Part shown: piece by piece, positions 7,573 through 29,028 of the stretch | Layout of the letters: each line of letters begins with the position of its first letter | How positions within the stretch are numbered: position 1 is the first letter of the stretch | DNA from: a virus | Lineage: Duplodnaviria > Caudoviricetes | Strand: one strand, 5' to 3' | IMG/VR virus record: IMGVR_UViG_3300025502_000100 | Span: 1-30,714 of that record | Length of the DNA stretch: 30,714 bases | Translations under genes and position numbers: made by a program | Notes under the pieces: generated by a model | Seen by the model: the letters and a program-made list of their open reading frames with translations, nothing else | What the model was told of the DNA's origin: nothing | The model's database searches: none

Positions 7573-9327
7573 TCACTGTGGTAATTTCTCATAGCACTTT
7601 ACCCATTTACTAGTACCACAGTCCCATATTCTATCATAACCATTTACTTGCATATTTTCCCACTCGGTTAGGTTGGCGTTAAATATGTCTAGTTTTTTTT
7701 CTAATTTATGTTTTTGGAAAGTCACTCGATTGTACATATGTAGATAGTCATTTGATTTGAAGTACATGTATGATGGTTTTGTGTAGTTCACGAACTCAAA
7801 CCCGAGTGACCGATAAACTTCACCTTGAAAGTACCGTCTGTCTGAGAATGTTACCATTGATGTGGGGTTGAACATGCGTTCGAAGAACTTAAGCAGTTTA
7901 GATGCCCCACCAACAACCGATGTGTTGAGTTTGTTACAGTATCTAGAAATCTCCCACTGGTATGATTTACTATATCGAGATTTAACAAAACTCATAACCG
8001 ATACTAACTCATCAAGGTAATATAGTCCAAGTTGAACAGATGCTTGATCATGTCCTTGTAAATGATTTTCGTCTAAGAATGACGCACTCTCACTATGAGT
8101 GATTTGTAATATAGTGCATTTTCTACCATGTATTCGAGCACTATACCCTCCTATATAGGATTGTATTATAGATTTAACTATATTTTTTTTGTACAACCAT
8201 TCATTTTCAAACACATGGAGTAAATTAACTCCAACCGCATCACATGATATCGTCTTACTCAAGTGATATGCCTTATCAGTACGACCACTTCTCTCAGAGT
8301 GCCAATATAGTCCGTTATATTCAATGGCTAGTGACATACTTGGTAGGTAGATGTCAACTTCTTTTGGTGAAATAACCGACCTACTGTTGATTATAACGTC
8401 GCCGTCGTACACTGATTTTATAAATTCATGCAATTCTACTTGCGCGGATGATCGTGTGGTTGTATAGCATATAGGACATATTGGTATATTTCCATTGTCA
8501 ATAGATGCACTGAAGTCTGTGGTGCATTCCGTGCATTTAAATAGATATTTCTTAGAAGACACTCCCTCATAATCGTCCAATGTAAATAGTGGTTTAATTT
8601 TTAGTTCATCTGACATAGCAATAAACTTATGAATTACGGACTGTCCAATTTGTTGCCTATACTCATCCGTCTGTTGGTAATAGTCTACCCCATACTTGGA
8701 CTGATTGGTCTGTTTATGTTTAACCATGTTATTGTAGTTTTCGTCACCATACCTATCTAATTTAGTTTGTTTTATAGCACGGATGCCATTTGGGGTTGCC
8801 GTGTATGAGTGGGCACCATATTTAATTAAATTAGTTTCTATGATTTTAGCAGCATTATTGTAATTAGCATCACCATGTACACCTAGCTTAGTTTTTAAAT
8901 TTTGCTCTGAATTATTATAGTTAGCATTTCCATATCTGTCGAACTTCGTATCCTTGATTTTGTTTCGGTACAAGTCTATTTCCATGATATTATCAACACC
9001 GTAATTAGACTGCAGTGTAGTTCGGATCGATTTCCTTATTTTATCCTTGGTGGCGTCAGTGTGCGGTTTTTTAGGTGCGTGATTTTTGGTGTATTGTTTA
9101 AAAAACGGGCCTGTCTTAGTAGGTTTGAATGCTAACTCAGTACCACACCCACATGCACATGTTGGTACTACTCCATTGAAATAATGTTTAATGATATAGC
9201 AACGTTTGCTCATGTTATGAACTTTATTAACATGAGACATGCATAGTCTAGCAGTGTCAAACTTAGTATTACATTCGTTACATTTCAGTAAGTCGGTTTT
9301 ATTGATTATTATATCAGATGGATTCAT
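7573..9327 (-). CDS. Free-standing Hef-like homing endonuclease (584 aa)
   Basis: C2H2 finger (CNEC..HVNKVH), CACGCG, KYG-type repeats, CTEC..CPIC, nuclease motif EVDIYLPSMSLAIEYNGLYWHS, and a C-terminal FLDENHLQG/WEISRYC/GGASKL/RIWDCG domain. Confidence 0.75.
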   Translation of the reverse strand: MNPSDIIINKTDLLKCNECNTKFDTARLCMSHVNKVHNMSKRCYIIKHYFNGVVPTCACGCGTELAFKPTKTGPFFKQYTKNHAPKKPHTDATKDKIRKSIRTTLQSNYGVDNIMEIDLYRNKIKDTKFDRYGNANYNNSEQNLKTKLGVHGDANYNNAAKIIETNLIKYGAHSYTATPNGIRAIKQTKLDRYGDENYNNMVKHKQTNQSKYGVDYYQQTDEYRQQIGQSVIHKFIAMSDELKIKPLFTLDDYEGVSSKKYLFKCTECTTDFSASIDNGNIPICPICYTTTRSSAQVELHEFIKSVYDGDVIINSRSVISPKEVDIYLPSMSLAIEYNGLYWHSERSGRTDKAYHLSKTISCDAVGVNLLHVFENEWLYKKNIVKSIIQSYIGGYSARIHGRKCTILQITHSESASFLDENHLQGHDQASVQLGLYYLDELVSVMSFVKSRYSKSYQWEISRYCNKLNTSVVGGASKLLKFFERMFNPTSMVTFSDRRYFQGEVYRSLGFEFVNYTKPSYMYFKSNDYLHMYNRVTFQKHKLEKKLDIFNANLTEWENMQVNGYDRIWDCGTSKWVKCYEKLPQ

Positions 9328-12214: not shown

Positions 12215-12222
12215 TATAAGTA
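12215..12222 (-). promoter_or_regulatory. Putative late promoter variant TACTTATA
   Basis: One mismatch to TATTTATA; the minus strand reads TACTTAT-ATAC. Confidence 0.55.
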
Positions 12223-12225
12223 TAT

Positions 12226-12423
12226 TTAACTTTTATTTAAATTTACTTTTTTCTTAAAATTTGCATCTTTTTTTTCTCTGCGTCTTTTTGTAGTAGGTTT
12301 TTCATAATAACATCTTAATTTATAGTCATCGAGTATTTCAGAACTTCTGACTTCTTTTTTAAATATAGATAGTGCTTTAGCTAAGTTACCACGGACTACA
12401 TTGACGGTTAAATTGACTGACAT
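12226..12423 (-). CDS. rpsU: Phage-encoded ribosomal protein bS21
   Basis: 65 aa, basic: VNVVRGNLAKALSIFKKEV...YYEKPTTKRRREK matches the bS21 pattern. Confidence 0.85.
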   Translation of the reverse strand: MSVNLTVNVVRGNLAKALSIFKKEVRSSEILDDYKLRCYYEKPTTKRRREKKDANFKKKVNLNKS

Positions 12424-16447: not shown

Positions 16448-19384
16448 TTAATTATCATCTAATAGATTTTTCTCACTCAATAACCCACCAGGTGCACCTT
16501 TGCCAATATCTTTAAGTTTTTTAAGATTTAACTTATCAAGAATTCCCTCATTACGACGCAGTTCTTGCCTACCTACTGGATCACGACCCATGACATAGTC
16601 ATCCTTGCCATATCGACTCGTGTCTTTGGGACGGCCACCTCGTTTACCAAACATTTCAAAATCTTTTTTAGTATAGACCCGTTTGCCTTGTTTATTTGGC
16701 ACTTTCGAGTACTTATCCGTTGGATCGGCATCACTATCTTGTAGTGGTGGCAACGCACCGTCCTCTTCAGTATCGGTGTCTGCATCATTTGCGTCGGTGT
16801 CATCATCTGCGTCGGTGTCATCATCTGCGTCGGTATCTTCAGGTGGTTGTTTATCGGGATCTTTGCCCTCATTTTGAATAGTTTCTATGCGATAAGCAAA
16901 TTCCATATCTTTTACGATATTATCTAACTCAGTTTGCCTATCATCTTGAGGTAAATCAAGTACATTATCATATATCCAGTCATTTGATAATAGATTCAAT
17001 TCTTTAATGTCAGCTACCAGACTTATTCTCGTTGAGAGTAATTCCATCTGCTCTCGAGTATAAATCGTAGATGGGTTGTTTAGTGTCACTCTGAAGTTAA
17101 TAAGTTCGTCATCGGTATATCCCTGTGTGTACAAGTGTACAATTGCGATTTTTGTTAGTTCAGATTCAACTATGCGTTGGATTCTCTCTATAGTACGAGC
17201 AAATCGAATATCTTCTTGTGCTAAAGTTGCCTTACCATTCAACCCCTCCTCATATCCAAGATATGCTTTAGGAATTTTTAACGCAGACAGTAGTTTATTT
17301 TTAAGATATTCGATATCTTGTATACCGTCATAATCAAGTCCACCAAGTTCACTAACCTCAGACCCCCCATTGGCACCACGCACTGGAAAGTAAAAGTCTT
17401 CAGTCATATTTTGCATATTGTATCTAAGGTTGTACTCTCCAGTTTCCCTATTCATATGCGGTTCTTTCTTCATCTTATTGACCATCTGGTTCATGTAGTT
17501 TTCCACTTCATTTGGTGGAATGTTACCAATGTCAATTTTAAATACTCTTTTAGATGGTGCTCGCATAATACGATGTATCAACATCGCATCTTCCATTAAT
17601 TGTAATTGCTTAAATACACGTCTGCCATTTTCTAGCATAGAGTTGTGTACAACCACTCCATTTGCGATGAAGTTTGAATTGGATGATTCAACTTGAATGT
17701 CATATGTCGGCTGCGTTCCGACATGATTAATTGATGTGATTGGTTGAACGAATATACTAGAGTCATCATCGAGTGTATTATATTCGTAGGACTGTTCTTT
17801 CTCAGAACCATCTAAATAAAAGTATATACAGTGCGAGTTAACTCCATCACATATGTCAGTTATAGCATCATATCCATGTGCGTCTACTTGTGATGCTTTT
17901 ATCAGTAACGTATCAAGTAGTGTAGTTACATCTTCTTTTAATTTTAAATTAGATAATTCTAATTGATATCGACTAGCACCGCACTCATCTGTAACCACCG
18001 AACCGTTGGCATCGACCAATCCACATATAAACTCCAACTTTAGATCGTCTGTTAATTCAAATACCCATGATGGTACTCGTTTAGATGTAGCACGTTTCTG
18101 TAGTCCGTTTATAAGCAAAAACTCAGATAATTCTTCTGAGTTAGACCAATACTGACCACCTGAATTTATAAGTGGGTTACTGTACTCAATTGGTGTGTTT
18201 GAGTATTTCTGTAGTAGTGACGTATAAGTATTATTCACATCTTGGTCGGTACTCAATGTAATATTGACCGATGAGTTGTTGGGTGATGTCCAACCATGAC
18301 CAAGCATAAATCCAAAGAATTTACAGAACTCAGCATCTGCTACTGTTGGTAGTATTTCACTACCATCTTGCAACTCCGTATGATTACTGGTTGTTGTGGA
18401 TTTTTTAGAAAGAGTTACTTCCTTACCAGTGAACTTTTTATAATTTGATACAACAAGTAAGTCCGCTACCTGTAATTCGTCTGCTCGTTTATATGAGAAT
18501 TCCACACCGTTGTGTGTCAGAAATGGATGGGTTTCACTTGCATGCACATACGTATGTGAAGTTTCGATAGATAATATATCTTTATCACCCGACACCGTGG
18601 TGTGTAGCACACGTGTTAACTCATATTCAAGTGTATCGTAGTTAAATGACCAAACGTTATCATCCACATTCAGTTCATCAATTCGAGTTTGACCAAACTC
18701 AGTCATCACATATGAATTCGATGCCAGACATTTTCCATATGGTAAAAAGTTAGAATCGGACAGTAGTCTAAAGTGTGCTATCTCAAAGTTTTCATATTCA
18801 TTATTTCGTTCCAATCTATGCACAAACTTAACATGATGAGGATTCTCTGGATCAGACCCTTCGACTCTATCAATCTCATGCACTGCAAGTGGCTGTACAT
18901 TGATTATGCCATACTTTTCACTAATATCTAACTTTAGGAAAAAATCACCATATTTTGCTAGATTTCTAACCCAAGGCCATAAATTAAATTCTATATTTAA
19001 TATATCGAAGAATAAATTGTCTAAAATTTCTTTAATATTATCATCTTGAGTTGATATAGTTAATATATTACCATGCTCATTTCGTGTAGTAGATTCGTCG
19101 GCATATATATCACATGCTGATGCGAGGATTGGATCCTGATCCATTAGTTCATAATCACGATACAACTGCTCTCGTATTGCAGAGTAACCCATCATTTCAT
19201 GTCGTTTCGAGTGGGCTAATGAAGTTTTATAGACTCTACTAAATCTATCACGCAGGTAGTCATCCGCATACGATTGAGTTCGTGAAGTATCGGATATCTT
19301 TATGTCGCCTTTGCCGGTTTTACGCACGATTACATTACTGCTAAATAACCTACGCAACGCACCTCTTAGTGATTTATCTGCCAT
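16448..19384 (-). CDS. gp20: Portal protein, T4 gp20-like, with an intein (978-aa precursor, about 615 aa spliced)
   Basis: IYADEST, KYGDFF, MEDAMLIHRIMRAPSKRVFKIDIGN, EDFYFPVRG, ALKIPKAYL and EDIRFARTIERIQ motifs. Confidence 0.93.
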   Translation of the reverse strand: MADKSLRGALRRLFSSNVIVRKTGKGDIKISDTSRTQSYADDYLRDRFSRVYKTSLAHSKRHEMMGYSAIREQLYRDYELMDQDPILASACDIYADESTTRNEHGNILTISTQDDNIKEILDNLFFDILNIEFNLWPWVRNLAKYGDFFLKLDISEKYGIINVQPLAVHEIDRVEGSDPENPHHVKFVHRLERNNEYENFEIAHFRLLSDSNFLPYGKCLASNSYVMTEFGQTRIDELNVDDNVWSFNYDTLEYELTRVLHTTVSGDKDILSIETSHTYVHASETHPFLTHNGVEFSYKRADELQVADLLVVSNYKKFTGKEVTLSKKSTTTSNHTELQDGSEILPTVADAEFCKFFGFMLGHGWTSPNNSSVNITLSTDQDVNNTYTSLLQKYSNTPIEYSNPLINSGGQYWSNSEELSEFLLINGLQKRATSKRVPSWVFELTDDLKLEFICGLVDANGSVVTDECGASRYQLELSNLKLKEDVTTLLDTLLIKASQVDAHGYDAITDICDGVNSHCIYFYLDGSEKEQSYEYNTLDDDSSIFVQPITSINHVGTQPTYDIQVESSNSNFIANGVVVHNSMLENGRRVFKQLQLMEDAMLIHRIMRAPSKRVFKIDIGNIPPNEVENYMNQMVNKMKKEPHMNRETGEYNLRYNMQNMTEDFYFPVRGANGGSEVSELGGLDYDGIQDIEYLKNKLLSALKIPKAYLGYEEGLNGKATLAQEDIRFARTIERIQRIVESELTKIAIVHLYTQGYTDDELINFRVTLNNPSTIYTREQMELLSTRISLVADIKELNLLSNDWIYDNVLDLPQDDRQTELDNIVKDMEFAYRIETIQNEGKDPDKQPPEDTDADDDTDADDDTDANDADTDTEEDGALPPLQDSDADPTDKYSKVPNKQGKRVYTKKDFEMFGKRGGRPKDTSRYGKDDYVMGRDPVGRQELRRNEGILDKLNLKKLKDIGKGAPGGLLSEKNLLDDN
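16790..16834. repeat. 18-bp tandem repeat (2.5 copies) encoding DTDADD in the portal acidic tail
   Basis: TGCGTCGGTGTCATCATC twice plus a partial copy. Confidence 0.85.
17642..18730 (-). mobile_element. Intein (363 aa) with a degenerate LAGLIDADG endonuclease, within the portal
   Basis: PYGK|CLASNSYV ... ASETHPFL (block B) ... TYDIQV..NFIANGVVVHN|SMLE; LAGLIDADG-like helices FFGFMLGHG and FICGLVDANG. Confidence 0.92.
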
Positions 19385-19434
19385 GTATTATATTATATAT
19401 GTTTTCTAGAAAAAAAGTTAATCAATTATCGTAT

Positions 19435-19595
19435 GTGAACTACACACCTACGCAAAAGCGATAGATGTGCTTCGGGCTTCATCGAAAGTGCTACCTGAGT
19501 AGTCTGAGTCTTTCTCCACCTTTGTATTGGACAGTCCCTGCCCAAATATTTTTAATCCTTCTTTTAGAACGACCTGTGAGTTTTACGCTCCATCT
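19435..19595 (-). mobile_element. Non-autonomous IS200/IS605-derived mini-element A (tnpB 3' remnant plus right end/omega-RNA-like)
   Basis: Remnant frame LKEGLKIFGQGLSNTKVE...EARSTSIAFA* (19567-19448) resembles TnpB C-termini; subterminal hairpin CCGAAG-GCACATCTA..TAGGTGTGT-AGTTCAC end. Left boundary inferred. Confidence 0.7.
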
Positions 19596-19602
19596 ATAAA
19601 TA
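19595..19602 (-). promoter_or_regulatory. Putative late promoter TATTTATA for the portal gene, abutting element A
   Basis: Recurrent motif. Confidence 0.6.
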
Positions 19603-19633
19603 TAACTATTAAACTAGAAATAGCAAATTAGTT

Positions 19634-21220
19634 TTACTTGTCAAATAACCAACGAAAGTCTACGACTTCTCCTTTGATTTCTTGCGTATATGGATTCGAT
19701 GAAATGGATGATGGTGTAAATACACCTGAGGTGGTGGTTCGTTGAATTCCATTAAGTGCCTGTCGGGTCATTTCCATACTTTCCATGCGAAGTTTCAGTG
19801 CAGTATCACGCACCCACAATGCAATCGCATAACTCATTACTAAGTCATCATGATATCCACCCATTGCTTCTGCTCTCTGACCTTTCCATATGAATGTAAA
19901 TAGTTCATCTATCAGTCGAGTATCTTTTATTATAGCATCTTTTTTTCGAACATATTCATCTAACTTAGAGATGAGCATAGGTCTTGTTTTAGTTGATGTG
20001 GTGAATCCTGGAGTAGTTGGGTTCTCCGTATCTGCTCGCTTATTTATATAAGCATAATGAGTATCAACCACTTGCATGTCCTTTGATGAGTAAAATATAT
20101 TAGGATACCCGATGTCTATCATTTCTTGTAATGTCGCCCAACCTACGTTTGCATTTTCCACCACAACCAATGCGTTATTCCACTCACTTCCAACTAGTGT
20201 CAGCATCCGTCCAAATTCTTTTGTGTCTATTTTTGCTTTAAACGACGCAACTTGTCTGAGGGTTTCTACTTCTAAAACATTAAATGTGGAAAAATCAGAT
20301 GCATCACCTCGAGCAACGTCGGCTGATACGATGTAGTTCATAGCATAGTCAGGATACTCCCATAACCAATAACTCTGCAACATGCCACGTTTTTCGATAG
20401 GATCGCATACGTGAGTATCTCGATACCACTCTAGTACGTCTCCAGGCACAATACTGTCACCCGATGACATAAAACTACAGTCACACTCTTGTGCTGCCAG
20501 CTTAGGCCCTAATACATCGTCTTGTTCGTCCCGCCATGCTTGGTCTCGGTCGGGATGTAGACTCCAGTGTAGGTTGATCGTATTAAACCTATTAGTCCCG
20601 TCTTTGGCACCATTCCACGTCTTGTGAAACCACCCACCCATACCATTCGGAGTTGACAGTGCGATACATTTACCACCTGTTGCGAGTGTCTGTTGGGCAG
20701 ATGCCCATATGTCATCGATGTAATCTATAAAGGCACATTCATCGAGGACTAATAGCGATACAGATTCAGAACGACCTGCGTCAGGAGAACTTGCAACTGC
20801 TTTAATAGACGATCCATTTGCAAAAACAAGGGATAACTTATTATCTTCAATGGTGGTTCCACGCAACCACTTAGGTAATGATTCTTGTGCATATCGAACT
20901 TTAGTAACTAAGTTCTTCGCAACATCTTGTTTGGTTGCAATAATAAGAACTTTTTTATCTTTCTGAAATAACATTAACCACAATGCGTATGCAGCGGTCA
21001 GTGTCGACAGTCCCATTTGACGTGCCTTGAGTATTACATTATAATCGTTCTTTACAAGTTGATCGAATGCCAGTTCTTGAAATCTATATGTATCAAACTT
21101 TATCTTACCCTTCGTTGGGTGTGATATATAGATATACTTTTTAAAAAAATAGATGGGGTCACGTGCACATCGCACGTACTCTTCTCTAATTAGTTTCTTA
21201 TAGTTTACGTCAGAACTCAT
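19634..21220 (-). CDS. terL: Terminase large subunit, T4 gp17-like (528 aa)
   Basis: Walker A KARQMGLST, Walker B LLVLDECAF, LSTPNG, nuclease motifs ADVARG and HDDLVMS. Confidence 0.95.
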   Translation of the reverse strand: MSSDVNYKKLIREEYVRCARDPIYFFKKYIYISHPTKGKIKFDTYRFQELAFDQLVKNDYNVILKARQMGLSTLTAAYALWLMLFQKDKKVLIIATKQDVAKNLVTKVRYAQESLPKWLRGTTIEDNKLSLVFANGSSIKAVASSPDAGRSESVSLLVLDECAFIDYIDDIWASAQQTLATGGKCIALSTPNGMGGWFHKTWNGAKDGTNRFNTINLHWSLHPDRDQAWRDEQDDVLGPKLAAQECDCSFMSSGDSIVPGDVLEWYRDTHVCDPIEKRGMLQSYWLWEYPDYAMNYIVSADVARGDASDFSTFNVLEVETLRQVASFKAKIDTKEFGRMLTLVGSEWNNALVVVENANVGWATLQEMIDIGYPNIFYSSKDMQVVDTHYAYINKRADTENPTTPGFTTSTKTRPMLISKLDEYVRKKDAIIKDTRLIDELFTFIWKGQRAEAMGGYHDDLVMSYAIALWVRDTALKLRMESMEMTRQALNGIQRTTTSGVFTPSSISSNPYTQEIKGEVVDFRWLFDK

Positions 21221-21262
21221 TTTTTAATTAATTAGTTATATATCTATATATATCTAACTACA

Positions 21263-22036
21263 TTAAAATTTGATTAGATTATAATTAAATCCAACTCCAA
21301 TATACGGTAAAAAGTTTGCACCATTGAACTGCATACCACTACTAACTCCGAATCCAAATCTACGTGACTTTGGGTGAATTCGAGATTTTTGAATAACAGC
21401 TCCTTGTAAGTTTGTGATTTGAACATTGTCCAAAGGACTCCTTACAAAAATAGTGTAAATATCGTCATACTCTCGGATGCCTGTGATAAGTGATAATTTT
21501 ATCACATTGTCGGTTATTCTAGTACTAATATTGTATGGGGTATACAACAGACTATCCCATCTAAATTCTACATATCCTTTTATGAAAAAATATGTGGAAT
21601 CTCTATTAAGAGACGATTGAAAGTTTACGGTGAATGCGTCGTTTATCTGAGTTACTGACGTTTGAGACAAATATACCGTATCTGACTTTACTACAACAGA
21701 TGTCTTAATAATAGTTTTGACATTACCACGTTCCTTTTCCAACTCCGCAAATAAAGAATCACTATATACTTTCAATGATTTTTTATCAGATACTAGTGCC
21801 TGTCGTTCAAATCCCAACTCACCTGTGGTTGTCTCATAGGTGCGAACAGAGTCACGCAATGCATTGACGTTCTCTAATCTATTTTTTGAAATAGATTGTT
21901 CATCGAGATATGCACCTCGGTACTTAGCGATTCCTAGACCTAGTATAACTACTAGTATAAATAATACATATCGTTGATTGTCAGGCTTTGTTATGAAATC
22001 AAAAAATGATTTTAGTAGTGGAATTATTAAACTCAC
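21263..22036 (-). CDS. Membrane-anchored protein with a coiled coil and C-terminal amphipathic beta-strands; candidate spanin-like lysis protein (257 aa)
   Basis: N-terminal TM YVLFILVVILGLGIA; C-terminus FGFGVSSG...PYIGVGFNYNLIKF. Confidence 0.5.
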   Translation of the reverse strand: MSLIIPLLKSFFDFITKPDNQRYVLFILVVILGLGIAKYRGAYLDEQSISKNRLENVNALRDSVRTYETTTGELGFERQALVSDKKSLKVYSDSLFAELEKERGNVKTIIKTSVVVKSDTVYLSQTSVTQINDAFTVNFQSSLNRDSTYFFIKGYVEFRWDSLLYTPYNISTRITDNVIKLSLITGIREYDDIYTIFVRSPLDNVQITNLQGAVIQKSRIHPKSRRFGFGVSSGMQFNGANFLPYIGVGFNYNLIKF

Positions 22037-22464
22037 GGAAAGTCCCCTACTATAAGTTTAGCAACAATTCCAATTAATGCCATTACAATTATCCATAATA
22101 ACTTAACCACATTTTTTTTAAATGAAACTAGGTTATTATGAGAACCGACTATGTCATTATTAATAACATCATCAACTGCTTGTTGTATTTTAAAAAAATC
22201 TGCTGGATTAATTAATGCTTTATCCAATAAATTAACACGCACCGCTAGTCCAGTCTCAGGGTCTAATATTCGTTGTTGCAAGACCCGGACTTTATCGTCG
22301 ATTTGTTTGATGTGATTTGCTATATTGTCTATGTTATTTTGTATAACATTTAACTCACCATTCGGCAACCTCTTTCTGAGCAACTCGAGTTGAACACTCA
22401 GTTGCGATAGTAATTCGGTGTTAGTGTCATTCAATTCGCTCATTGTATTTTGTATAATACTCAT
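22033..22464 (-). CDS. Coiled-coil protein with a C-terminal TM helix; candidate holin-like protein
   Basis: Heptad region IQNNIDNIANHIKQIDDKVRVLQ; TM LLWIIVMALIGIVAKLIV. The start may be 22443. Confidence 0.5.
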   Translation of the reverse strand: MSIIQNTMSELNDTNTELLSQLSVQLELLRKRLPNGELNVIQNNIDNIANHIKQIDDKVRVLQQRILDPETGLAVRVNLLDKALINPADFFKIQQAVDDVINNDIVGSHNNLVSFKKNVVKLLWIIVMALIGIVAKLIVGDFP

Positions 22465-23026
22465 CTATTACATTATGTAACTTTCTTCTATAAGTATCAA
22501 GGCTTTCCGCATATTCATCGATAATCTCATCAAAATTTATGTCAGACGACCATCGTTCTCTAGTTCCGTCCGACATAATAAATTCAGGGTTTTTCTTTGC
22601 GTTTTCTTTGAAGTCTTGAAACTGATCTTCTTGATCCCGTAACCAACTCTGTGATGATTTAATTCGCTTCTTCCATGTAAATTGCTCAAGTGTACCATCT
22701 TTGCGCATGGTATTATGGTCATCAACCATACAGTCAAGGCAAGTGCCATTGTTATAGTACGCAGTTGTTCCTGACTTTCCCCTTATAACTCCACTACATC
22801 GAGGACAGAATGTTGGTATACGAACATCATCAAATCTTGTTATATTTGTGACAGTACCATTTTCCATTTTAGTCCAGGTTTTTCCATTATGCTCCCACGT
22901 ATCCCCAACTTTCTTACCCTTTGAACTTAACCCTTGCTTACCATTACCAAATCCAACTTGGACAGCTTTTTGTATATCCTTGCCTTGTAGTAATGTCTTT
23001 AAATTATCTATATTTTTTGTATCCAT
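22427..23026 (-). CDS. Hypothetical zinc-binding protein (199 aa)
   Basis: KVGDTWEHNGKTW beta motif; CPRC...CLDC..DH. Confidence 0.65.
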   Translation of the reverse strand: MDTKNIDNLKTLLQGKDIQKAVQVGFGNGKQGLSSKGKKVGDTWEHNGKTWTKMENGTVTNITRFDDVRIPTFCPRCSGVIRGKSGTTAYYNNGTCLDCMVDDHNTMRKDGTLEQFTWKKRIKSSQSWLRDQEDQFQDFKENAKKNPEFIMSDGTRERWSSDINFDEIIDEYAESLDTYRRKLHNVIDEYYTKYNERIE

Positions 23027-23045
23027 AACCTTGTATTAATTGTAT

Positions 23046-23129
23046 GTGAACTGCCCATCCACACCAAAGGTGATGTGATGGACTTCGGAGGTCATAGGCT
23101 CACCTAATGATGACTCCTTGCTCTATTCT
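23046..23129 (-). mobile_element. 84-bp IS200/IS605-like mini-element B (right end/omega-RNA-like structured RNA)
   Basis: Same frame as element A (CCGAAG-stem-AGTTCAC|ATAC) with a different but pairing stem GTCCATC..CACC-TTT-GGTG..GATGGGC; additional 5' hairpin GGAGTCAT..TAGG-TGAG-CCTA-TGACCTCC. Confidence 0.65.
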
Positions 23130-23136
23130 ATAAATA
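23129..23136 (-). promoter_or_regulatory. Putative late promoter TATTTATA, abutting element B
   Basis: Recurrent motif, 7 nt after the ligase-like stop. Confidence 0.6.
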
Positions 23137-23143
23137 TACATAT

Positions 23144-24514
23144 CTATTGAATATTGTATATATTTTTTATTTCATGTAATTTCGAATTTCCAATCACAAA
23201 ATGAATTACGCTATAATAAATAGGAAGGAGGTCGGCGTCATCTACCTCACTCAATGCGTCTTGTATAGTTTTTATAAACGAGGCACTTGCATTAATTTTT
23301 TCAGAAGAAATAATGTATTTTGACATAGGTATAGATTCTTTATTTCTTTCAAGTAGTTGAGTTTCATGTAGTATTACCTCATGTAATGCAAGTAACTCAC
23401 GTGTGACAATTTCCTTTACCTCGTCACACGGCAGTTGAATACGGCCTTCTGTATTCATATCATTGTATATTACATCAAACACTTCATGTACGTATCGGAA
23501 CGTCCGAGGATTTCCGGTTCCCTTATTGATAAATAAGTAATCATTTAGTTTCTCAATAATTTTTGTAAAATTCTTAAGTATATCAGCACCAAAGAATATA
23601 TTTTTCTTTATCCTAGACTTAGCTGATGTAATTGCACGAGTGACCTTGCTTGAGTTTTCGGATGCTACTTTATTTATTTCAGAAAATGAATCTTTGTCCA
23701 CTATCTTTACCACGAGATTGTTTGCAAAATCACGCACAATAACACCCTCTGGCTCACCATTTCCAATGTGAGACACTGTACCCTTTACAAAATAATTTAT
23801 AAACTGTAACTTAATATTATCTTTGATTGTCTGTATTTGAGTTGTTACCTCAGTTTTCAATTGCTGAGTTGCTCGTTTGCGGGATCCTAATAAGGTTACA
23901 TTGTCGGAACTTAGTTTACGTAGATCGTCAATTGGTTTGGTATTTATCTCAAACCCACTAATATCAACTTTATTTTTTACAACCACCACCCACCCACCAA
24001 CATCGTGTAGTGTGCATGCAATGAATTCGAGAATATCGTCGGACGTAGGTAATTCTAATATAGAGTTACCACCAAGCAGTACGTCAAATACCACAATAGA
24101 TTTATTGGAAGCATATTGCACAATGTTTGTCTGTGAGTTAGGCATTATTTCACAAAATACTTGAAAGTTAAATTCACCAGAAATGTCCAACTTAAATTTA
24201 ATGAAGTCGTATATTTCACTTAATAAACTTGAGTTGCACTCTAGTATATCATGATACTCACGCAGTCCTTGCATGAAAGAAAAGTCTGCATATTCACTCG
24301 AAGATTTAATTGGGAGTGATCGTTTGGTCTTAGTATACAATTCCCCATCCAGACCACGTCCAAACGAAAAGTTCTGTCCGTCTATTTTCTCGGATACTTC
24401 TATGGTATCAGTTGAATCTTTTATAAAATTATCTACAAATAGTAAAAAATTTTTGGTAGATAGTTCATCCATGTGAACTATCTTTTCCATATGCGATACA
24501 CTGTCTAACGTCAT
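23144..24514 (-). CDS. ATP-dependent RNA-ligase-like (covalent nucleotidyltransferase fold) protein (456 aa)
   Basis: Motif I VSEKIDGQN, III VFCEI, IIIa VVFDV, IV EGVIVR, V VVKIVDK; helical C-terminus with no OB domain evident. Confidence 0.7.
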   Translation of the reverse strand: MTLDSVSHMEKIVHMDELSTKNFLLFVDNFIKDSTDTIEVSEKIDGQNFSFGRGLDGELYTKTKRSLPIKSSSEYADFSFMQGLREYHDILECNSSLLSEIYDFIKFKLDISGEFNFQVFCEIMPNSQTNIVQYASNKSIVVFDVLLGGNSILELPTSDDILEFIACTLHDVGGWVVVVKNKVDISGFEINTKPIDDLRKLSSDNVTLLGSRKRATQQLKTEVTTQIQTIKDNIKLQFINYFVKGTVSHIGNGEPEGVIVRDFANNLVVKIVDKDSFSEINKVASENSSKVTRAITSAKSRIKKNIFFGADILKNFTKIIEKLNDYLFINKGTGNPRTFRYVHEVFDVIYNDMNTEGRIQLPCDEVKEIVTRELLALHEVILHETQLLERNKESIPMSKYIISSEKINASASFIKTIQDALSEVDDADLLPIYYSVIHFVIGNSKLHEIKNIYNIQ

Positions 24515-25677: not shown

Positions 25678-28600
25678 TCAACTATGTTTAGCTACATCAA
25701 TTACAATTTTACCATCCTGTGTAGTTACACTAAATGATTCAGGTGATATATTTGTGTAATATTGCTCATATCGCTTGATGTGCTCTTTTAAGTTATTTTC
25801 AGTTGTCGATAGCTTAGTGTAGTACTCTGGATCATTCGTGAGGTTGTCTAGTACGATTTCAGCTGCCGTTATATTATTGCGAGTGTGTACACGTTCGACC
25901 GATATTCCCATTTCGAATTGATACTTGATATCATCTATAGACACTCCATGCTTTTTTGAAATATCTAATATGTTAAGATCATCCCCAACTCCGCCACGCA
26001 CCTTATCTATATGTGACACATAGTTATTGGACGTGTCTTCCCCAACTCCACCACCATCCATAGCACCGTCTGGTAATTCACCGATCGACGGATTTATTAC
26101 ACCAAATGCTCGAGTTGATCCTGTATATTGAGTTTGTATCGGCACTGCCTCGTTCGTAGTATCTGATTTGTTTATATGGTACTTATCCCAATTCAACAAA
26201 GTCGAGTTGATAGTCTCAGTCACGACGTATTGGAGAACTTCATCAATACCACTCATTTGCTCCTTAGTTAGTGGAACTCTATACATTTTACCTGCACCTA
26301 TTGCGTAATCTATATTCCTACCCTTACTTTCAACAAATCCAAATTCTTTATAAAACTTGATGAGTCTGTTTCGTGAAGTGGTGCCATGATGCTTATCTGC
26401 GAGTCCAGGTGTCAATATAATTCGTTTACCGTGCGTATCTGCATAATCAATCAACGACTGCATTGCTTCAGTACCTGTGCCTTTTTTTTGAGCATCTTTT
26501 TTTACTATGAGTGAATCGAGGTAAATATCATTATTTTTTTCATATAGTGCAAAAGTATGTAAGTCTAATCGTTTTTTTATTTCAGATGCGAGCGTTTTGA
26601 TATTTTCATTAATATGCTCGAACGATAGCTTTTGGTTACTTGTCTGAAAGTTTCTCTTTCTCATTATAGTTTTTGCGATTAGTTGATTTGCCATTTTAAC
26701 AAATGGTATATTAATATTCGTTTTTTTATCAGACAGTACGATTTCTGAGTACTTCTTTAATACATTTATAAGAGATTCTTTATATGGAATCAGTCTATCA
26801 AAAAAATCAATAAGTTCATTTCTACTGATAGGTTTTTCATTTCTAGGGTCTAGTAGTCTATCAAAAAAATGTCTAGTTCTTAAGTTTATGTCAATTGGAT
26901 TGAATTTAGCGTCTGCATAGTTGTCAATGAATGCCACGTCTGATTTGCTGATATCTTCACCCAACCCAGCCTTATCGTACTTAGTACCGAATTTTTCTAA
27001 TTTATCAAATGCACGAAATGCTTTGAGTTTTTCTTGCTTTTTGGGACGCATGTCATTTAATAGTTTAAACTTCATATGATTCTTTACAATATAAAATACA
27101 TTCGCAAGGTTAGCACCCATATCTGTTATCCAATCTGAATATTCTTTTACTAAGGCAGCGGATACTTTTTCATGCCCAATATGTTGAACTATGCCTTTTT
27201 TTGGATTAAAAACACCAGTTTCATCCTTGCCTATGTCATGAAACATCGCAGCGATTGCTAGGTCAATATCATCAGACTTCAATGCACGTGTAACTACCAT
27301 TATGGTATGCTTCAATGTGTTCCCCTCGGGATGCTTATCAGGTCGTTGTGGTACTTGCTTCAATCCATATACACGTGTCTGTAAGTCCTTTGGCATCTTA
27401 TCAAAAAGACTTCGAAAGTCCTTTACACCAATATCAGTTAATTTTGACTCATTCATAAATTTATCATACTCCATACTTTTTATTTTAGATGAAATTTCGG
27501 CACCTTTGAATCCGAGTGAGGTGACTTCATTACCAGACACTGACAGTTTAAATCTTGCATACTTTTCTAGTGGAGTTTTTGTAAATTTACCCCATTTAAT
27601 TATTCTATTTACATCTAATGTTGTATCTTGTTCTGCCTTTTTATAAGAAAATATATGCTTAGGATTAAACCTAGATAGCGCAATTAATACTTTAACATCA
27701 TATGCTTCTTGCTTTTCATATTTGATATCTTTTAAATACTCATACACCTCACTTACTTCATACGACTTTAGTAAGTGCGCCACCTGGAAGATATAATCAT
27801 TGCTTTCAATAAAGTCAGTATCGCATTTCATGTTAGGAAATATTTCTGACAGCATTCCAAGGTCGTCGACTGCTTTCAAGTATTTCACGGTACTTTTGGC
27901 CGATGTGATTGATTTAATGAACTCATCTCGAATTCGTTCAGGTGATACATCATGTAATGATGGGTTATCTATGATTGCCTTTTTAATAGCTACATCAAAG
28001 TTTCCATCGAATTTTGCATAAAATCGAAGTGCTCTCAGTTTTCTAAGAGAGTCTTCTTCAAACCTGCTCGATGCATCTCCAACGGTGCGAATTATGTTAT
28101 TTTTTAAATCAGAAACACCTCCAACCAAATCAATGACTTCGTTAGCATCAATGTCATAAAATAATGCGTTGATAGTCAAGTCACGTCGTGCCACGTCCCC
28201 CTCTATATCGGTAAACTCAACACTATCAGGTCGTCTACCACCACTCATATCTTTTCTGAATGTGGTGATTTCTTCACCATCCACTACGATGACTCCGAAT
28301 TCTTCACCAACGGTAGTGTATTTTAAATTGGAATTGGTTGCAATTTGTTTAATTTCAGTGGGAGTTGCGTCAGTAGTTAAGTCAAAGTCTTTTGGGTCTT
28401 TGCCTAGTAACGCATCTCGCACGGCACCACCAACTACATACAGTTTCTTACCAGCCTGCTTGAATGCGGTGTGAATTGTAATCACATTATTAGGTAAATG
28501 TAACTTCAATGGGTGTGTAGACTCTATGAGTTGTTTATTCTCAGTTACATTTTTCATATTCTTAGCACCTTTTGATGACAGTGACTTAGTAAGTCGTGCT

Positions 28601-29028
28601 TGTTGCTTGGATTGTGCGAATTCCCAACCCATAGTTGCAACCGTTCGAGCGATGTGAGATTTCCACTTATTATAGGCACCAATTCCATAAATATCTTGTT
28701 GGTTAGTTGGCGTGTTTACACCGAAATCTCCGGCAGGGAAGTAAGAAACAGAGTCAACAGGCCCATTTGGATATGTGGGTGGTTCTAGTGCCAATTCCAT
28801 ATCATCATCTACCATATAATCAATGATAGACCAACCTGTTTTTAGAAAACTAACTAAATCTGCCTTTGTCGCACTCTTATACGCATCGAAGTTGGGATAT
28901 ACGAAGCCTGGCCCATCATCTGGTGAGATTGTTTCAAGTAAGTTATCTTTGTTTGACAAAATCCATAATATAATATCAGATTCATCTAAATTAATGTCAG
29001 TTAAGTCTATTTTATTTATATTATCCAT
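25678..29028 (-). CDS. cca: Multidomain polyprotein: unknown N domain, CCA-adding tRNA nucleotidyltransferase, HD phosphohydrolase, HFxDR domain, GNAT acetyltransferase, DUF5661-like (1116 aa)
   Basis: VGGAVRD..KDFD, RRDLTINA, EDSLRKLRALRF; HPEGNTLKH..FHDIGK..GHE; RHFFDRLLDPRN..KTIMRK; QKKGTGT..LIKFYKEFGF; MGISVERVH..PEYYTKL. The gene symbol applies to one domain only. Confidence 0.85.
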   Translation of the reverse strand: MDNINKIDLTDINLDESDIILWILSNKDNLLETISPDDGPGFVYPNFDAYKSATKADLVSFLKTGWSIIDYMVDDDMELALEPPTYPNGPVDSVSYFPAGDFGVNTPTNQQDIYGIGAYNKWKSHIARTVATMGWEFAQSKQQARLTKSLSSKGAKNMKNVTENKQLIESTHPLKLHLPNNVITIHTAFKQAGKKLYVVGGAVRDALLGKDPKDFDLTTDATPTEIKQIATNSNLKYTTVGEEFGVIVVDGEEITTFRKDMSGGRRPDSVEFTDIEGDVARRDLTINALFYDIDANEVIDLVGGVSDLKNNIIRTVGDASSRFEEDSLRKLRALRFYAKFDGNFDVAIKKAIIDNPSLHDVSPERIRDEFIKSITSAKSTVKYLKAVDDLGMLSEIFPNMKCDTDFIESNDYIFQVAHLLKSYEVSEVYEYLKDIKYEKQEAYDVKVLIALSRFNPKHIFSYKKAEQDTTLDVNRIIKWGKFTKTPLEKYARFKLSVSGNEVTSLGFKGAEISSKIKSMEYDKFMNESKLTDIGVKDFRSLFDKMPKDLQTRVYGLKQVPQRPDKHPEGNTLKHTIMVVTRALKSDDIDLAIAAMFHDIGKDETGVFNPKKGIVQHIGHEKVSAALVKEYSDWITDMGANLANVFYIVKNHMKFKLLNDMRPKKQEKLKAFRAFDKLEKFGTKYDKAGLGEDISKSDVAFIDNYADAKFNPIDINLRTRHFFDRLLDPRNEKPISRNELIDFFDRLIPYKESLINVLKKYSEIVLSDKKTNINIPFVKMANQLIAKTIMRKRNFQTSNQKLSFEHINENIKTLASEIKKRLDLHTFALYEKNNDIYLDSLIVKKDAQKKGTGTEAMQSLIDYADTHGKRIILTPGLADKHHGTTSRNRLIKFYKEFGFVESKGRNIDYAIGAGKMYRVPLTKEQMSGIDEVLQYVVTETINSTLLNWDKYHINKSDTTNEAVPIQTQYTGSTRAFGVINPSIGELPDGAMDGGGVGEDTSNNYVSHIDKVRGGVGDDLNILDISKKHGVSIDDIKYQFEMGISVERVHTRNNITAAEIVLDNLTNDPEYYTKLSTTENNLKEHIKRYEQYYTNISPESFSVTTQDGKIVIDVAKHS

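Follow-up and report, generated by a model that had tools for sequence, protein, structure and literature searches.

Probable deletion remnants of IS605-family insertion sequences within promoter-like motifs of a T4-like phage

Two short minus-strand elements, E1 (161 nt) and E2 (84 nt), lie between genes of a large T4-like phage, and each begins directly behind the pentamer TTTAT inside the same promoter-like motif, TATTTATA. Both are found in the IMG/VR virus record IMGVR_UViG_3300025502_000100, whose entire sequence of 30,714 nucleotides is referred to here as the window and whose estimated completeness is 17%. What are these elements, and what brought both of them into that motif? The original prediction, made from the sequence of the window, described two non-autonomous mini-elements that share one layout between TATATTTAT and ATAC, resemble the omega-RNAs that guide TnpB and belong to a family using the phage late promoter as its target. 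The layout itself is confirmed by the sequence, as is the absence of tnpA and tnpB, neither of which was found in the record. Our analysis leads to a different view of the target. We consider it likely that two insertion sequences of the IS605 family (TnpA/TnpB) gave rise to E1 and E2 by deletions that left no genes behind. Both remnants adjoin TTTAT within what is likely a late promoter, most likely because the motif is the sole sense-strand landing site tolerated between these genes.

Origin and boundaries of the two elements

The parent family could be recognized from both of its ends. A pattern derived from the right ends of E1 and E2 recovered 27 viral loci (one being the window's own sequence), many of which close open reading frames (ORFs) of ~400 aa ending in a TnpB zinc-finger and RuvC-III region. 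Full elements are ~1.8 kb long and carry divergent Y1 tnpA and tnpB genes; in L077 and L014 the Pfam families of TnpA (PF01797) and TnpB (PF01385, PF07282 and PF12323) all score above cut-off. Because full elements combine Y1 tnpA with tnpB, the family belongs to the IS605 group and not to IS607, an origin excluded by a TnpA of the Y1 rather than the serine type. A left-end scan that did not presuppose any target (26 of 64 parts covered) gave at least 127 loci in at least 106 unique contexts. Left ends were counted if followed by a downstream hairpin or right-end signature (68 of the 106 contexts); the 38 contexts having neither were set aside, 28 of them without TTTAT and 10 with it, including the window's own copy, and those with TTTAT were re-included for the comparison of left hairpins given below. 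TTTAT precedes 64 of the 68 counted viral left ends and 27 of 28 bacterial ones, the latter from genomes that without exception carry a Bacteroidota label and are mostly of Sphingobacterium, and the first base of the element is A in 61/64 and 26/27 of these, respectively. The family right end is TTCAC, behind which the 3′ flanks vary freely.

E1 and E2 share these boundaries: TTTAT stands 5′ of both, no target duplication is visible, and both right ends consist of GAAG, a hairpin and AGTTCAC. Together with the identities to family ends listed in Table 1 and given below, this supports the IS200/IS605 origin and the TTTAT and TTCAC boundaries that had been proposed. The proposed non-autonomy of the elements is upheld as well. 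Compared with the intact left end of locus L284, the left end of E1 breaks in the loop of the left hairpin and is joined, at a TT overlap, to a tnpB tail that translates to KEGLKIFGQGLSNTKVE, a reading shared with the intact TnpB proteins from L246 and L247. On DNA folding, this left end is without the left hairpin (z −0.20 vs −3.1 and −3.2 in intact ends). In keeping with the proposal that the stems work on the minus strand, the terminal hairpins of E1 and E2 reach z-scores of −3.49 and −2.13 on that strand vs −1.55 and −0.51 on the plus strand.

The tnpB tail and right end of E1 were compared with a covariance model, R1, built from 22 family ends of other contigs, with the window sequence excluded. 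R1 has six helices including a pseudoknot; 95.8% of cells pair and 13 pairs show two-sided changes across the 22 ends, and since we drew the structure from the same sequences, these controls are biased towards it. E1 is matched along the full model (positions 1–129) with 101 bits and E2 with 51 bits, obtained from the 3′ half only, the next best of the 13 window matches having 11 bits. E1 also bears a likeness to ISDra2 (PMC10097598). The right-end RNA (reRNA) of ISDra2, like E1, has a scaffold, ~115–120 nt long, that overlaps the tnpB 3′ end and a terminal hairpin, and positions −103 to −106 of ISDra2 form a pseudoknot with the last bases before the guide; the loop of E1 starts at −104, in register. 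ISDra2 differs in belonging to another sequence family with the target-adjacent motif (TAM) TTGAT, and E2 is without the pseudoknot half. The comparison with TnpB omega-RNAs thus bears out the idea of a guide RNA for E1, which is a predicted omega-RNA, plausibly acting in trans, but not for E2, which has no pseudoknot hairpin.

A single subfamily for both elements was considered and rejected, as blastn gives no alignment between E1 and E2 and two subfamilies are present. In E2, a left-end piece of ~10 nt is fused to the 3′ half of a second-subfamily omega-RNA (alignment A2), with 83–85% identity over 78 nt to L006, L008 and L108. It has neither the left hairpin nor the pseudoknot hairpin, and no GRAC loop motif occurs in its 84 nt. 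Between the window and a related strain, 5 of 84 positions differ in E2 and 6 of 423 in its flanks (p=0.02), and at 4 of the 5 strain-variable positions the window allele departs from the family majority. One contig of a related strain reads ATAT after E2, possibly an error at a depth of 3.9. By these sequence comparisons, E2 is likely an inert, drifting relic.

A promoter-like motif as landing site

Of the intergenic TTTAT sites lying sense-upstream of genes, 6 of 7 are part of the motif TATTTATA, compared with 3 of 148 genic TTTAT sites. We take TATTTATA to be the T4 late consensus in reverse complement. On the minus strand of the window, all eight intergenic TTTAT sites read TATTTAT and seven of them TATTTATA; on the plus strand, none of nine intergenic TTTAT sites is part of TATTTATA. 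In Flavobacterium Immutovirus (L289) the motif lies 24–25 nt before the start codon at 4/4 sense intergenic sites (2587, 3973, 5578 and 7460; 9.6 kb read), and with E2 removed from the window it would, by arithmetic, start 26 nt before the ATG at 23026. The terminase–portal gap of both Immutovirus and Microcystis phage Mel-JY01 contains bare TATTTATA and no element. A sigma-70 scan stayed at shuffle level (19 vs 16.5). Taken by its position, TATTTATA is likely a late promoter in the window and a candidate late promoter for the phage group.

This arrangement offers an answer to why both elements are where they are. Because all eight TTTAT sites there are TATTTAT, sense-strand intergenic insertion in the window is confined to the motif, and because the element starts with A, insertion restores TATTTATA. 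On the reading we prefer, TnpA from the host or from a phage copy would have inserted each element 3′ of TTTAT; the first-base A would have rebuilt the motif, and the downstream gene likely stayed expressed. Deletions would then have taken the genes together with the left-end hairpin, whose place, had it been kept, would be immediately downstream of the start of transcription, and would have left remnants unable to excise normally. E1, having kept its whole scaffold, would be transcribed in the portal leader, where its RNA could be loaded by TnpB made elsewhere. That the loaded TnpB would cut element-free copies of the site in co-infecting phages, a form of selfish retention, is a tentative and somewhat doubtful addition. 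E2 would have lost half of its scaffold and would now be the likely inert relic described above.

Further copies and rival explanations

Several findings weigh against deletion remnants that simply stay where they were inserted. The end of record G049, a non-overlapping module of the same phage group, carries a copy of E1 that is identical over 141/141 nt and has the same deletion junction; it follows TATATTTAT behind a gene for a 1599-aa structural protein and has only 9 nt of 5′ flank in common with E1 of the window. A derivative 78 nt shorter than E1 is present at another TATATTTAT site (contigs in X6 and X7). Moreover, the flank of an E1 contig in X6 diverges exactly at TTTAT, and in X8 there are contig breaks at either end of the element, at approximately double depth; this suggests an E1 copy not at the motif. 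Locus L034 leaves the window sequence right after TTCAC into tRNA-Trp; this copy may be an assembly join through a sibling insertion sequence, because tnpB-like loose ends leave E1 at the deletion point in X7 and X12. All four mini-element copies with a readable 5′ flank (E1, E2, the G049 copy and the X6/X7 derivative) follow TATATTTAT, for which the chance is ~0.05 from the window site count and ~0.15 when a fifth copy, deduced from the contig breaks, is counted. The hairpin-less E1, junction included, is thus present at two or more loci, for which plain immobilization gives no explanation. In addition, no empty allele was found at the nucleotide level and no joint skipping the whole element was seen in the contigs of 4 of 24 runs (contigs drop rare variants), and both "promoter" and "late" are assigned to TATTTATA from its position. 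Finally, broken or weak left hairpins are enriched behind the motif, with 5 of 7 following TATTTAT, whereas 10 of 66 ends with an intact hairpin do so (p=0.003), a post hoc comparison whose threshold was set after looking, whose loci are few and possibly related, and in which one of the five, L132, may be misclassed. Selection against a hairpin downstream of a promoter would fit this enrichment, yet the arrival of E1 at several loci is left unexplained by it.

As a separate observation on L034 (6786–6966), its right-end TTCAC abuts the first base of tRNA-Trp(CCA), which is followed by tRNA-Thr(TGT); the would-be guide there is the tRNA 5′ arm, and tRNA processing would therefore separate scaffold from guide.

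The additional copies would be accounted for if E1 were an actively spreading mini-element that needs no left-end hairpin and has been copied to other late promoters. This could happen either through a TnpA that tolerates the truncated end or through recombination, helped by TnpB cuts, that converts sibling copies to the short form, such siblings sharing the left-end start and the 135-nt tail. The identical copy in G049, the shorter derivative, the X6 and X8 contigs and the exit of L034 into a tRNA gene all speak for such spread, and terminal-only 52-bp PATEs may likewise be mobile (PMC3119063). On the other hand, TnpA recognizes subterminal palindromes, binding the hairpins at both ends (PMC3201880; PMC7290912), and the exact E1 left end is found in two viral records only, one of them being the window's own sequence. 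Assemblies of short reads, which may be chimeric at repeats, are the source of the extra copies, and the tRNA-flanked copy may be a full-length sibling, given the loose ends in X7 and X12. We regard active spread of E1 as doubtful. Still less probable, in our estimate, is a scenario in which E1 is a new type of parasite of late promoters: an omega-RNA cassette without the left-end hairpin needed for normal transposition. Such a cassette would restore the promoter into which it has inserted and be transcribed from it when infection peaks. Borrowed TnpB acting in trans, together with phage recombination, would carry it to other late promoters and into co-infecting phages, without standard TnpA excision.

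According to the original prediction, the late promoter is the target of a dedicated family that inserts at TTTAT^ATAC, and each of the two elements is transcribed late as a guide RNA directed against related phages whose promoter allele is empty. It is true that TATATTTAT precedes the two elements of the window as well as two further copies, that both window flanks begin with ATAC and that the scaffold of E1 is full. Across the family, however, only TTTAT appears to be needed. TATTTAT precedes 11 of 64 viral insertions vs a background of 10.6% (p=0.10) and 1 of 27 bacterial ones (viral vs bacterial p=0.10); the family is not specific to promoters. In a comparison of 40 of 48 records, which we picked non-randomly towards large-phage fragments and which include several already known at TATTTAT, 2 of 7 elements follow TA in the seven TATTTATA-rich regions vs 10 of 36 in the other 33 regions. 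A pattern combining the promoter with the left end had no match in bacterial genomes, and in the window itself both elements would fall on the motif without any preference with a probability of ~0.22 (both strands counted). ATAC, tried as a target or promoter feature, had to be rejected: it follows none of the six uninterrupted minus-strand intergenic TATTTAT sites in the window and only 1 of 66 non-window family right ends, and E2 is followed by ATAT in the strain contig mentioned above. The uninterrupted site near 12215 does read TACTTAT-ATAC, as had been noted, at 12222–12212, and it has a C inside the motif.

The part of that proposal concerning guides fares no better. Exact 17-nt searches in viral contigs gave 11 non-self matches for the E1 guide and 24 for the E2 guide, none preceded by TTTAT, numbers consistent with chance. 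Terminase searches returned either the same sequence (100%) or relatives at ≤61% identity only, which are therefore too distant for empty alleles to be read at base level, and the precise empty alleles predicted in relatives did not turn up. A search with R1 revealed no element in three related phage records (G046–G048). With no TAM-flanked match, no empty allele and no element in these records, the results give no sign that the guides are in use or have been conserved. The family probably does not target the late promoter, E2 lacks the pseudoknot hairpin, and we regard the combination of dedicated targeting and two late guide RNAs as quite improbable.

Another possibility is that the phage has domesticated these RNAs, either as guides for a nuclease-dead, TldR-like TnpB or in a regulatory role, as leaders of the genes for the portal and the 199-aa protein. 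Both elements do lie in 5′ leaders of late-region genes, and phage-borne TldR systems are on record. Yet the closest full-length tnpB genes (L246 and L247) keep the RuvC D-E-D motifs, at what we take to be the motif positions, which speaks against a nuclease-dead regulator. Inside the window, even the best TAM-adjacent sites mismatch the guides at 5 and 7 of 16 nt, and no guide target was found; nor does the incomplete record contain a linked tnpB gene. The element is absent from related phages (0/3 records, and 0/2 cultured phages in the regions read), and E2 drifts faster than its flanks. Domestication is accordingly very improbable. As for plain structured 5′ untranslated regions unrelated to transposons, they would agree with the lack of a GenBank phage match in blastn with E1 and of any Rfam family in a scan of 19300–23250 (a single chance-level match), but 76–85% identity to tnpB/IS605 ends, a readable TnpB C-terminal peptide and boundaries equal to the family's TTTAT and TTCAC have in effect already refuted them.

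Genomic setting and relation to known systems

The phage, large and T4-like, is represented in the window by its head and packaging module, with genes for a Gp23 capsid protein, a prohead protease, a portal protein with an intein, a large terminase and the ribosomal protein bS21 (Table 1 lists the genes next to E1 and E2). The best cultured matches of the terminase are those of Microcystis phage Mel-JY01 (51.5% identity) and Flavobacterium Immutovirus (48%). In the published freshwater bS21 clades, the bS21 gene is on the strand opposite to the structural genes (Chen et al. 2022; PMC9723584). Because bS21 of the window (12226–12423) is encoded on the same strand as capsid and portal, membership in these clades was ruled out. 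Other observations concern the neighbourhood. The portal gene (16448–19384) is interrupted by an intein of ~350 aa; a homing-endonuclease-like gene of 584 aa (7573–9327; PHROG 3339, E 2e-116) lies directly 3′ of the major capsid gene; and a 1116-aa fusion at 25678–29028, near the RNA-ligase-like gene, combines tRNA nucleotidyltransferase (PolyA_pol), HD, GNAT and DUF5661 domains.

Table 1. Positions of E1, E2, their parts and the adjacent genes in the window
Feature	Position	Strand	Remarks
Element E1, 161 nt, likely gene-less IS605-family deletion remnant	19435..19595	-	follows TATATTTAT; ends CCGAAG-hairpin-AGTTCAC, then ATAC
E1 left-end remnant	19568..19595	-	matches intact left end L284 for ~28 nt
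E1 tnpB 3′ tail with right end; omega-RNA scaffold, predicted to be complete	19435..19569	-	76–81% identity over 135 nt to tnpB ends
E1 5′ stem with GGGAC loop	19527..19545	-	loop positions −104 to −100; predicted pseudoknot with GUUC at right end
E1 right-end hairpin	19442..19470	-	GAAG before, AGTTCAC after (TTCAC 19439–19435)
E1 3′ flank, predicted 16-nt guide, in portal gene leader	19419..19434	-	adjoins TTCAC end
TATTTATA promoter-like motif at E1	19595..19602	-	TTTAT target 19600–19596; last A (19595) is first base of E1
Element E2, 84 nt	23046..23129	-	follows TATATTTAT; ends CCGAAG-hairpin-AGTTCAC, then ATAC
E2 right-end hairpin	23053..23083	-	AGTTCAC after (TTCAC 23050–23046)
E2 3′ flank (would-be guide)	23030..23045	-	overlaps translation start region of 199-aa gene
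TATTTATA promoter-like motif at E2	23129..23136	-	TTTAT target 23134–23130; last A is first base of E2
T4-like portal protein with intein, downstream of E1	16448..19384	-	Pfam Portal_T4 and Intein_splicing
Large terminase, upstream of E1	19634..21220	-	Pfam Terminase_6N; 48–52% identity to Immutovirus and Mel-JY01
199-aa gene, downstream of E2	22427..23026	-	no Pfam or PHROG match
RNA-ligase-like gene, upstream of E2	23144..24514	-	Pfam RNA_ligase E 3e-5 (below cut-off); PHROG 548 E 3e-10

The class to which these elements belong is already known, since gene-less IS605 derivatives with omega-RNAs are in print as PATEs and as stand-alone omega-RNAs. PATEs arise through core deletion (PMC3119063) and often encode omega-RNAs that require TnpB in trans (bioRxiv 2023.03.14.532601). 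Like the PATEs and PATE-like minis of Haloquadratum (PMC3119063), Geobacillus stearothermophilus (bioRxiv 2023.03.14.532601) and Halanaerobium (PMC7290912), E1 and E2 have no genes and no target duplication, are bounded by the target motif and right end of the parent, point to an origin by internal deletion and may keep part of the tnpB tail with an omega-RNA needing TnpB in trans. At 161 and 84 nt they have no coding capacity, and their ends are related to those of IS605-type elements, but palindromes are not present at both ends. Because the left hairpin is broken in E1 and absent in E2, we do not assign them to canonical PATEs; unlike PATEs, they have lost the left subterminal palindrome, their carrier is a T4-like phage of lytic type, and they rebuild the promoter-like motif in which they lie. 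What is distinctive here is the loss of the left palindrome together with the presence of E1 at several loci. A partial literature search at the level of listings showed no work dealing with IS605 minis located in late promoters of T4-like phages.

Other systems resemble E1 and E2 in part. ISGst2 of the IS605 family has the TAM TTTAT and the transposon-encoded motif (TEM) TTCAC, the same as the present family (bioRxiv 2023.03.14.532601), which occurs in Bacteroidota genomes and viral contigs; the likeness is one of motifs. Stand-alone omega-RNAs of OMEGA systems have no effector of their own, are mobilized in genomes and work in trans elsewhere (PMC10691335); unlike these, the trans role of E1 is predicted only, and no cognate tnpB is present in the 17%-complete record. 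The PeSL motifs of T4-like phages are also short, repeated, promoter-linked elements that serve as recombination points between otherwise unrelated sequences (PMC4122927), but they are early promoter/terminator composites and not derived from transposons.

The family as a whole forms a deletion series, from tnpB-only elements through minis of 190–300 nt with both hairpins to single-hairpin forms of roughly 50 nt, a range resembling that of haloarchaeal PATEs (PMC3119063). The ~50-nt forms (L050, L052, L062, L085, L107, L111 and L113, and likewise L115, L123, L144, L145, L168 and L276) combine, by fusion, the start of the left end with a single hybrid hairpin and the right end, and resemble the terminal-only 52-bp PATEs of haloarchaea. 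The single viral records G001 (L039–L041 and L083) and G008 (L059, L062, L063, L081 and L087) have 5–9 left-end pattern matches, their contents including full elements, minis of 210–300 nt and single-hairpin forms. Unusual variants were also observed: L032 has family left and right ends around a 229-aa non-TnpB ORF, homing endonuclease-like by eye; L088 has both family ends in an element of ~810 nt without a TnpB signature; and in L283 (Sphingobacterium) the left-end start and hairpin are followed by an inverted left-end start, forming a palindromic head-to-head remnant.

If our preferred reading of E1 and E2 as deletion remnants is right, they show why such elements collect in T4-like late promoters: TTTAT is embedded in the motif, and the first A of the element restores it. 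They also provide a lead, namely that copies located in promoters lose the left hairpin and yet can still turn up at new loci. With a cultured relative that has the bare promoter, Immutovirus on Flavobacterium, and with close intact genes for TnpB and TnpA, trans-guided homing in a lytic phage becomes testable.

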